Source: a virus. From it: a DNA stretch of 10,606 bases. The position numbers and the translations under genes were made by a program. The notes under the pieces were generated by a model. That model did not search any database. It worked only from the letters and a program-made list of their open reading frames with translations, and was not told the DNA's origin. The DNA is taken from UHGV virus genome UHGV-0360087; one strand, given 5' to 3'. This document shows, piece by piece, positions 5,774 through 7,460 of the stretch. Within the stretch, counting starts at the first letter, position 1, and each line of letters begins with the position of its first letter.

Positions 5774-6256
5774 CTATTTGATCATCAGAGACGGCTTGCC
5801 GAGCTTTATTTGCGCCCCGGGCACGTCAATACCAGCTTCGATTTGATGCTTGATAGCCAGTTTGTCTGGTTTGATATTCGTCTCGTACTCGATGAATTCA
5901 GGCGGTAATGCGCTGGCGTCAGTAATCTCGACAGATTTAGAAGGTGCGCGAACCGTTACCTGATGAACTCCGGCTTTAAGTGATTTTTTACCGATGGTTT
6001 CCAATGATTTAGCGACATACTCCTTCATGCTTGCCACGCGGTTTTCGGCGGCTTTTGCACGCTCAATAAGGCGCTTACTTTCTTCTTTCAGAGCCTCGGC
6101 ATAAGCAGATTCGTTTTTGCAGACCGCAAGAATCTGCTCAACCTTTGCTTCCAGCTCCCACTCAATTCCATCAAGAGTGTCGGCTATCATTTCAGGCTCC
6201 ATGCCGGAGTCAGTCAGCCTGGCGAAATCGTTGGCGATCTGATAAAGGGCTGTCAT
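5774..6256 (-). CDS. Gp157-like or Mu-Gam-like protein, commonly found beside RecT, 160 aa
   Basis: It sits immediately downstream of recT with an ATGA overlap. It has a coiled-coil-rich centre and a C-terminal pattern like proteins of the Gp157 family. Family recalled from memory, not searched. Confidence 0.5.
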   Translation of the reverse strand: MTALYQIANDFARLTDSGMEPEMIADTLDGIEWELEAKVEQILAVCKNESAYAEALKEESKRLIERAKAAENRVASMKEYVAKSLETIGKKSLKAGVHQVTVRAPSKSVEITDASALPPEFIEYETNIKPDKLAIKHQIEAGIDVPGAQIKLGKPSLMIK

Positions 6257-7167
6257 TGGGTAACCTCTTCAAATTTGGCTTTACACTTGGCGTAAACGGC
6301 CTGAACCTCTTGCTGTAGGCGCATTCCTGCGGTCATTTTGTAGGCCGTCTGGAAATGGGTTTTGAGGTCATTCATGTTTTCTGCCTGCTTCATGTCTTCG
6401 CAAAGCGAGCGGACGGTGTTAATCAGCTCTTGCTCAGCGTTTTCTTTCGACTGGATAACTTCACTTTCAGGCGTGTAAGACATAACCGGTTCGGTAAAAA
6501 TGCCTTCGCTCTCGTTAAGCATGTCCACGGCATTATCGAGACGGTCAGCGCGCGGCCAGTATTTATAGGCGCGCTTCACGATCGTCTTTCGGGCCATCTC
6601 AGACCAGAAGTTGACCCAGGGGCCTTTCGGGGATGTACCGGCTTTACTCACCTTCCTGATTTCTTCAATTTCGGCGATGCTCATCTCTTCAGTCAGGTAG
6701 TCGCCGTCTGATGTTTTAACTGTGCAGTAGCCTCCGATAACGGCGCCACGCTCTTCAGGTGTGGCGAATGGGTTGTATTTGTGGGCCGGTGCTTTATCGA
6801 GGCCAATAGTTTCGTAAGCGTCGTTCGCATGAACCAGCTTGCATTGGCCCCACTTAATGACGCCGGCTGATTGGGCTATATGCAAAAGCCCCATATAGCT
6901 GATATCAAGGCATACCATGCCGTCACGCGGTACTAAGTAGGCCAGCTTGCTGGCAGGGTTTAAGCTGATCCCAACCGCTGCCACGTTAATGATTGCGTTC
7001 TGAGCGCTGACAGGATTGCTAACTGCCGTTTTGGCTAACGTGTCATTGCGCTGAAATAGCTGAATCGCAAACTGGCACTCTTTTGCCCATGTCAGGCTCT
7101 GGTCAGTAAGAGCGCTGGTAAACAGCGGCTCTTGCTGTTTAACGAACTGAATAAGATCGAAGCTCAT
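6253..7167 (-). CDS. recT: RecT-family single-strand annealing recombinase, 304 aa
   Basis: [34 protein letters not shown] closely matches the RecT signature region of E. coli RecT (SKAG..GPW..W.EMAKKT..R...KYLP). Strong RBS GGAGG upstream and TGA/ATG overlap with gam. Confidence 0.9.
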
Positions 7168-7460
7168 AGCCCCTCCTCAATGTTGACTTGATGCCGGGCA
7201 ATGACTTCCACCATGTAGCGCACGTTTTCCGCCATGCGCTCCTGAAACTCAACATCGTCATCAAACGCACGGGTAATGGCTTTTTTGCTGGCCCCGTGGC
7301 GTTGCAAATGATCGATGCATAGCGATTCAAACAGGTGCTGGGGCAGGCTTTTTTCCATGTCGTCTGCCAGTTCTGCCTCTTTCTCTTCACGGGCGAGCTG
7401 CTGGTAGTGACGCGCCCAGCTCTGAGCCTCAAGACGATCCTGAATGTAATAAGCGTTCAT
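7164..7460 (-). CDS. gam: Gam, host-nuclease (RecBCD) inhibitor, lambda GamS-like, 98 aa
   Basis: [37 protein letters not shown]...[19 protein letters not shown]...[15 protein letters not shown] is near-identical to lambda Gam as I recall it. AGGAG lies 7 nt upstream. Confidence 0.85.

Follow-up and report, generated by a model that had tools for sequence, protein, structure and literature searches.

A lambdoid prophage Rec module of lambda-type Gam, RecT and Gp157 in which no exonuclease was found

In the virus genome UHGV-0360087, analyzed here as a stretch of 10,606 nucleotides (the window), three adjacent genes on the minus strand, gam, recT and gp157, constitute an ordinary, intact Rec module in the early-left operon of a lambdoid prophage. 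The three genes are:

7164-7460, minus strand: gam, a lambda-type RecBCD inhibitor of 98 residues, which is the GamS-length form
6253-7167, minus strand: recT, a RecT-family single-strand annealing protein of 304 residues
5774-6256, minus strand: gp157, a protein of the Sipho_Gp157 family, 160 residues

An original prediction, made from the letters of the window, had placed the three genes at these coordinates and on this strand, and their families were confirmed here with Pfam and PHROGs. Both the gam stop/recT start and the recT stop/gp157 start, as read from the sequence, are ATGA overlaps, a usual sign of translational coupling. Together with kil, the genes run in the order kil-gam-recT-gp157 on one strand, between a cI-like repressor and the xis/int genes. 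As classes were defined in a survey of the Rec modules of 325 lambdoid phages (Zheng, Casjens, Davidson, Amundsen, Smith, Genome Res 2025, PMC12315714), the cluster falls into the one that pairs an anti-RecBCD function with an annealing protein and carries neither a nuclease nor a single-stranded DNA-binding protein (SSB); the Pfam and PHROGs scans of the open reading frames (ORFs) of the window gave no match to an SSB family. We put at roughly 78% the probability that this is a module of the RecBCD inhibitor plus strand-annealing protein type, without a dedicated nuclease, working by the mechanism set out below. The window has a single Chi site vs. 0.27 expected, a count that is uninformative at such a length.

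Gam matched PF06064 over positions 1-95 of 98 (E=3.9e-60; 200.6 bits vs. a cut-off of 25), phrog_259 (E=1e-56) and the solved lambda GamS (PDB 5MBV/2UUZ, E~1.5e-55). Its earlier description as near-identical to lambda GamS translates into an identity of 89% (87 of 98 residues); from this likeness, Gam would be expected to inhibit RecBCD. RecT matched PF03837 (E=1.1e-29; 103.9 bits vs. a cut-off of 24; profile positions 6-180 of 198) and phrog_148 (E=1.8e-80), and presumably anneals single strands as other members of its family do. It is 90-94% identical to the RecT of HK639, KO-TP1 and fM51a and 32% identical to Rac RecT over 197 residues (E=2e-23), with only 23% identity to lambda Beta (E=0.34); a phmmer search against PDB sequences returned no match, implying that no close relative has been solved. 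An adjacent 5'-3' exonuclease of the RecE or YqaJ type, which is typical but not obligatory for the RecT family, is absent both from the window and from 59 related loci (2 from species-representative genomes and 57 from IMG/VR, gathered by searches with a RecT alignment and all classified by tblastn).

The third protein, Gp157, covers positions 2-162 of the 162 in PF05565 (E=2e-41; 142.1 bits vs. a cut-off of 28.6), matches phrog_253 (E=8e-49) and is 28% identical to the prototype, orf157 of Sfi21 (tblastn, E=8e-8). The family is large, with 12,466 representatives at 50% identity (E<=0.001) and homologues in 619 phage records when annotated phages were searched by tblastn. In an AlphaFold2 (AF2) model (pLDDT 77), Gp157 consists of a helix of 67 residues with a small beta domain after it. 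Across 118 diverse members, the near-invariant positions are L4, K38, Y80, P118, K132, G142 and G147, and none of the acidic or histidine residues is conserved, which argues against an enzyme.

From the repressor to the excisionase-like gene, the other genes of the leftward operon are:

8339-9094, minus strand (leftward operon): cI-like S24 repressor
7537-7743, minus strand: kil, an FtsZ inhibitor, upstream of gam (phrog_294, E=2.2e-38, at residues 60-136 of the ORF 7537-7947)
5319-5747, minus strand: phrog_1680 'regulator', a predicted winged helix-turn-helix (HTH) protein of about 142-144 residues (phrog_1680, E=1.7e-75; weak match to HTH_11)
4795-5322, minus strand: Dam-type N6-adenine DNA methyltransferase, further down the operon (PF05869, E=7.3e-68)
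4580-4798, minus strand: DksA/TraR zinc-finger gene
4337-4576, minus strand: DUF4222 gene
4098-4340, minus strand: excisionase-like HTH gene

Ten ORFs lying between 2924 and 7947 were scanned with Pfam and PHROGs, and none matched a nuclease family; eight of the ten together cover the minus strand from 4098 to 7460. Pfam also gave no nuclease family for ten further ORFs, some of them antisense; the antisense ORFs had no Pfam matches and were ruled out as a hidden nuclease. When lambda Exo, lambda Beta, Rac RecE and a PDDEXK_5 protein were compared by tblastn with the six-frame translation of the window, nothing appeared at E<0.1, so there are no pseudogene remnants of these genes. The claim that the window holds no RecE- or YqaJ-type exonuclease ORF has therefore held, within the reach of Pfam, PHROGs, tblastn and fold prediction, and the interval 4337-6256, on which that claim had been staked, was searched without an exonuclease domain being found.

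Within this interval, the phrog_1680 product is the only protein of unassigned function with an adequate size. Its AF2 model, built on an alignment of 29 sequences (pLDDT 74), starts with three helices, continues with a beta wing and ends in a long helix at the C-terminus. The best Foldseek matches of this model, all weak, are to winged-helix regulators, TFE-alpha and MarR/ZitR among them. We rejected it as a hidden nuclease, since the model is that of a winged HTH protein and the fold matches are to regulators. No more than about 33 of the 59 related loci have the gene, and in another phage it adjoins an exonuclease gene; it is a frequent downstream neighbor, probably outside the recombination unit. 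A cryptic or novel exonuclease might be sought in Gp157, in a small ORF or in the phrog_1680 protein, given that the fold searches with the Gp157 and phrog_1680 models yielded weak matches only and so left both functions unproven. However, the absence of nuclease matches in Pfam and PHROGs, the negative tblastn with known exonucleases, the architecture of Gp157 with no conserved D, E or H and the winged HTH of the phrog_1680 protein all speak against this reading, which we consider highly improbable and already largely refuted.

Comparison of the related loci revealed which parts of the module are held together. In every one of the 59 loci that reaches far enough, Gp157 directly follows RecT with abutting coordinates. 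Upstream of RecT, about 53 of the 59 carry a GamL of the phi80 type and four carry a lambda-type Gam (L009, L025, L058 and L063), the last three of these at 70-78% identity; neither lambda Exo nor RecE was found by tblastn in any of the 59. Locus L009 is 99.99% identical to window positions 2945-10606 and is evidently the same prophage. By megablast, the RecT-Gp157-phrog_1680 block is matched at about 80% nucleotide identity in HK639 and Klebsiella KO-TP1, and RecT-Gp157 at 88% in an E. coli prophage; the trio of anti-RecBCD gene, RecT and Gp157 is likewise found in the viable phage HK639, in KO-TP1 and in an E. coli prophage. In HK140, the pair has co-diverged, RecT being 67% and Gp157 61% identical. 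Neither lambda Exo nor RecE lies near the pair in HK639, HK140 or KO-TP1.

This distribution bears on the possibility that the module is the decayed remnant of a Red- or RecET-type system, its exonuclease having been lost by deletion. Prophages often decay and the matching IMG/VR contig is short (14.3 kb), which would be compatible with such a loss. Nevertheless, the three ORFs are intact and coupled, fragments of an exonuclease gene were not found, and the identical architecture recurs in dozens of viral contigs of 40-58 kb as well as in the plaque-forming phages HK639 and HK140; we deem decay very improbable, and a decayed Red module in particular was rejected because tblastn recovered no remnants of exo or bet.

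Same-strand ORFs of these loci were clustered and twenty representatives of the commoner downstream clusters were scanned, yielding various types of DNA methyltransferase, endonuclease-like proteins with HNH_3/AP2, DksA/NinX, DUF4222 proteins and excisionases; no YqaJ or RecE exonuclease was among these twenty. Many of the related IMG/VR loci (L010-L065) carry large fused C5/N6 DNA methyltransferases. The HNH_3 and AP2-domain endonuclease-like gene lies in the leftward operon about 2 kb downstream of recT in 45 of the 59 loci and is absent from the window. Past the right end of the window, positions 1-7200 of L009 encode O, P, Bro/Ant, a weak NinB-like protein, YbcO (annotated as 'putative nuclease'), the RusA resolvase and Q, with no 5'-3' exonuclease among these genes. 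In the complete genome of HK639, NinB, an HNH endonuclease and RusA are annotated, but no exonuclease is.

In the original prediction, RecT would either work alone or have its nuclease partner encoded elsewhere. 'Alone' overlooks an invariant and translationally coupled neighbor, Gp157. As for a partner elsewhere in the prophage, e.g., in the nin region, YbcO (PF07102, E=3e-41), RusA and the NinB-like protein downstream of O and P in L009 and the HNH_3/AP2 endonuclease that related loci carry in this operon are candidates of a kind. However, YbcO, RusA and HNH proteins are of small endonuclease or resolvase types rather than processive 5'-3' exonucleases acting on double-stranded DNA, the HNH gene is not in the window, HK639 manages with no exonuclease listed in its complete genome, and none of these genes is linked to RecT in the way that Exo and RecE are linked to their annealing partners. 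We therefore regard a remote partner as unlikely.

The joint between the lambda-like and the HK639-like part of the module could be located almost to the base. Lambda similarity in blastn (94% nucleotide identity) spans 7177-7543, while similarity to HK639 and KO-TP1 spans 5331-7180 and that to fM51a 5774-7180 (80-88% for the three jointly). The feature is thus:

7177-7180, window coordinates: mosaic joint, where HK639/Klebsiella-prophage-like DNA on the left meets lambda-like DNA on the right

With the lambda match starting at 7177 and the HK639-type matches ending at 7180, the crossover lies within about 4 bases, 10-13 nucleotides inside the 3' end of gam, such that the final 13 nucleotides of gam belong to the block on the RecT side. 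This position accounts for a Gam C-terminus that differs from that of lambda (NIEEGL vs. DIDSEV). The kil gene, annotated at 207 nucleotides in relatives, marks the lambda-like side of the mosaic.

These data bear out the module shuffling that had been proposed, and place it at the gam/recT boundary. They show RecT-Gp157 as the conserved unit and the type of Gam as the variable part. The proposal had been that lambda bet and exo were replaced by RecT and Gp157; with RecT-Gp157 fixed and the inhibitor gene varying, the event is better read as an exchange of a kil-gam block in front of a conserved RecT-Gp157, i.e., a swap of Gam onto an existing GamL-RecT-Gp157 module.

The closest known systems are HK639 (gp40 GamL, gp39 RecT and gp38 'Mu Gam-like'), KO-TP1 and fM51a. 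They share with the window the gene order and coupling, a RecT (90-94%) and a Gp157 (about 92%) of high identity, the lack of an exonuclease and the position in the leftward operon, flanked by kil and by the methyltransferase/xis genes. The phrog_1680 gene comes next in HK639 and KO-TP1, as in the window, whereas fM51a has a different HTH gene there. What sets them apart is the inhibitor, which is GamL (phrog_1050) in these phages and lambda-type Gam (PF06064, phrog_259) in the window. In comparison with lambda Red (gam-bet-exo), the operon position, the Gam (89%) and the three-gene layout with the annealing protein second are the same, but RecT stands for Beta, the apparently non-enzymatic Gp157 stands for Exo and there is no exonuclease; the YqaJ/lambda-Exo type of 5'-3' exonuclease partner that would mark a Red-type system was not found in the window by Pfam, PHROGs or tblastn. 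Rac RecET shares a homologous RecT (32% identity); unlike the window, Rac has the RecE exonuclease VIII directly upstream of recT and neither Gam nor Gp157.

The lack of a nuclease is no anomaly, given that 84 of the 246 enterobacterial phages with a module in the survey have none (PMC12315714). There, the class with only an anti-RecBCD function and an annealing protein numbers 46 phages, with P22 as the prototype; HK140 is cited for an annealing protein with MuGam and no nuclease, and HK639 is singled out as belonging to a set of just three phages in which one function is covered by two genes, here GamL and MuGam (PMC12315714). Both the nuclease-less architecture and the HK639-type trio are consequently already catalogued, and the version with lambda Gam adds one more sequence-type combination to this kind. 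P22-type modules resemble that of the window in combining a RecBCD-directed protein with an annealing protein, in having no nuclease or SSB and in relying on host functions for end processing. In P22, however, Erf is accompanied by Abc2, which modifies RecBCD and does not block it, and hence single-stranded DNA may come from a different source there.

As to how such a module would operate, we propose the following mechanism. Upon induction, leftward transcription from a repressor-controlled promoter would give rise to three translationally coupled proteins. Gam, acting as a DNA mimic, would block the DNA-binding site of RecBCD and thereby spare linear and rolling-circle phage DNA, as its 89% identity to the lambda protein suggests. 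RecT, judging from its family, would coat single-stranded DNA and anneal complementary strands in support of recombination-dependent replication, concatemer formation and mosaic exchange. Gp157, with its coiled coil and small beta domain and a distant relationship to Mu Gam/Ku, may bind double-strand ends and either protect them or present them to RecT. The single-stranded substrate would have to be host-derived, because the phage encodes no 5'-3' exonuclease; we infer RecJ/RecQ-type resection, gaps at replication forks or lagging-strand gaps as its source. In this manner, the module would support the switch to concatemer-producing replication, and its own origin would lie in the joining, at the gam/recT boundary, of a RecT-Gp157 block and a kil-gam block of the lambda type.

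The label of Gp157 as 'Mu Gam-like end protection' originates from PHROGs (phrog_253). In comparison with Mu Gam and bacterial Ku-like end-binding proteins (PF07352, PDB 2P2U), Gp157 is of similar size (160 vs. 174 residues) and has a weak collinear similarity that runs from the helix end into the beta region, with the motifs VR-x-PS and G-x-x-(V/I)K-x-G in common. The weak match of Gp157 to PF07352, the Mu Gam family, is collinear over nearly the whole profile, and 15 of the 118 diverse Gp157 members match that profile at E<=0.01 (best 1.9e-5). Based on these similarities, the most likely, if unproven, activity of Gp157 would be the binding of double-strand DNA ends.

Several observations weigh against the proposed mechanism and against taking the prophage as complete. 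True Mu Gam is assigned to another PHROG, phrog_491, rather than to phrog_253; the PF07352 match of Gp157 itself (E=0.0034, 17.8 bits) is below the cut-off of 28.3; hhalign vs. Mu Gam gave E=0.052 with a Gp157 alignment of low diversity and with a diverse profile improved no further than E=6e-4 at a probability of 28%, over the C-terminal 52 columns only, and vs. the 2P2U fragment it reached E=0.039. Foldseek of the AF2 model vs. PDB gave nothing significant and did not recover 2P2U, an outcome that speaks neither for nor against a Mu Gam fold. A Mu Gam/Ku-like role in end binding is thus only weakly indicated, by remote homology that the fold searches did not confirm. Moreover, if Gam blocks RecBCD fully and Gp157 caps the ends, the mechanism does not explain how RecT comes by its single-stranded DNA. 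Lastly, with a matching viral contig (L009) of only 14.3 kb, the prophage may be incomplete or truncated, or the assembly broken.

Another role for Gp157 is suggested by its neighbors. We surmise that Gp157 might serve the annealing protein as its cognate accessory, e.g., as an adaptor that binds ends and either loads RecT or brings in a helicase or nuclease of the host; functionally, it would then fill the slot of lambda Exo. In favor of this are the invariance of the RecT-Gp157 adjacency with its ATGA while the type of Gam is exchanged, the co-divergence of the two proteins in HK140, and the position of gp157, which in gam-recT-gp157 is that of exo in gam-bet-exo. Furthermore, among phages sampled from the tblastn search of annotated phages, homologues adjoin not only RecT (HK639, HK140 and KO-TP1) but also annealing proteins unrelated to it, namely Sak4 with SSB in phiMR11, Erf with SSB in SN8 and an orf233-type protein in SW11. 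In Firmicutes phages, erf and sak4 have been described with orf157-like and Mu-gam-like genes upstream of them (Steczkiewicz et al. 2021, PMC8093625). On the other side, Gp157 is found next to an annotated exonuclease in ZF40 and Vibrio phage D338 and has nothing recognizable beside it in Brevibacillus phage Sundance, so it is not simply an alternative to a nuclease, and the adjacency to RecT could reflect co-inheritance only. An accessory of this type is a tentative reading, for which we would give clearly less than even odds. That it is found beside RecT, Sak4, Erf and exonucleases points to a general component of recombination modules with no strict role as a nuclease substitute; the broader idea that Gp157 serves as a general accessory of RecT, Erf and Sak4, an adaptor for double-stranded ends where the phage has no dedicated exonuclease, appears more doubtful still. 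The reading that we favor remains that of a RecBCD inhibitor and an annealing protein with no dedicated nuclease.

The remainder of the window concerns the setting of the prophage. Two tyrosine integrases flank a tRNA-Arg(CCT) gene (2675-2749, minus strand). One of them, at 1356-2549 on the minus strand, is IntS-like and matches E. coli argW-intS at 94-97% nucleotide identity. The second, at 2924-4114 on the plus strand, is assigned to the lambdoid prophage because the IMG/VR contig starts at window position 2945. Its orientation, facing xis and the leftward operon, is opposite to that of lambda int. The region 1356-4114 looks like two elements in tandem at argW. At the left edge of the window, next to the IntS-like integrase, an ORF on the plus strand (45-665) has a DUF4376 domain of the tail-fiber-assembly type, suggesting the end of a second phage-derived element. 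Just past the 3' end of the IntS-like gene, a 38-bp stretch (1298-1335) matches lambda 27473-27510 at 95% identity; in lambda, these positions belong to the b region and lie immediately left of attP.

In the interval that separates kil from the cI-like repressor (7743-8339), no N-like antiterminator ORF of at least 20 residues was present on the minus strand; a terminator-like hairpin lies at 8217-8200 on that strand. HK639, with the same RecT-Gp157 pair, uses a put-like antiterminator RNA; nucleotide similarity to HK639 putL was not found at 7743-8339, and Rfam gave nothing. The genes at the positions of cro and cII (9133-9972) belong to the YdaS (PF15943, E=4e-17) and YdaT (PF06254, E=8e-30) families, indicating an immunity region that is Rac-like and not lambda-like.

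As a discovery, the module is of little importance, since its architecture, its missing nuclease and its mosaic origin all fit documented Rec modules of lambdoid phages. It does illustrate cleanly, and with the joint resolved to the base, how an exchange can occur at a gene boundary, with GamL giving way to lambda Gam in front of a fixed RecT-Gp157. The strict coupling of Gp157 to RecT, together with its Erf, Sak4 and exonuclease neighbors elsewhere, makes this uncharacterized protein a worthwhile target for recombineering, and a RecT that works with an accessory and independently of an exonuclease could be useful in hosts where Exo or RecE partners perform poorly. If Gp157 does turn out to be an accessory of the annealing protein, it would not merely be a redundant 'second RecBCD inhibitor', the class to which its orthologue in HK639 is currently assigned.

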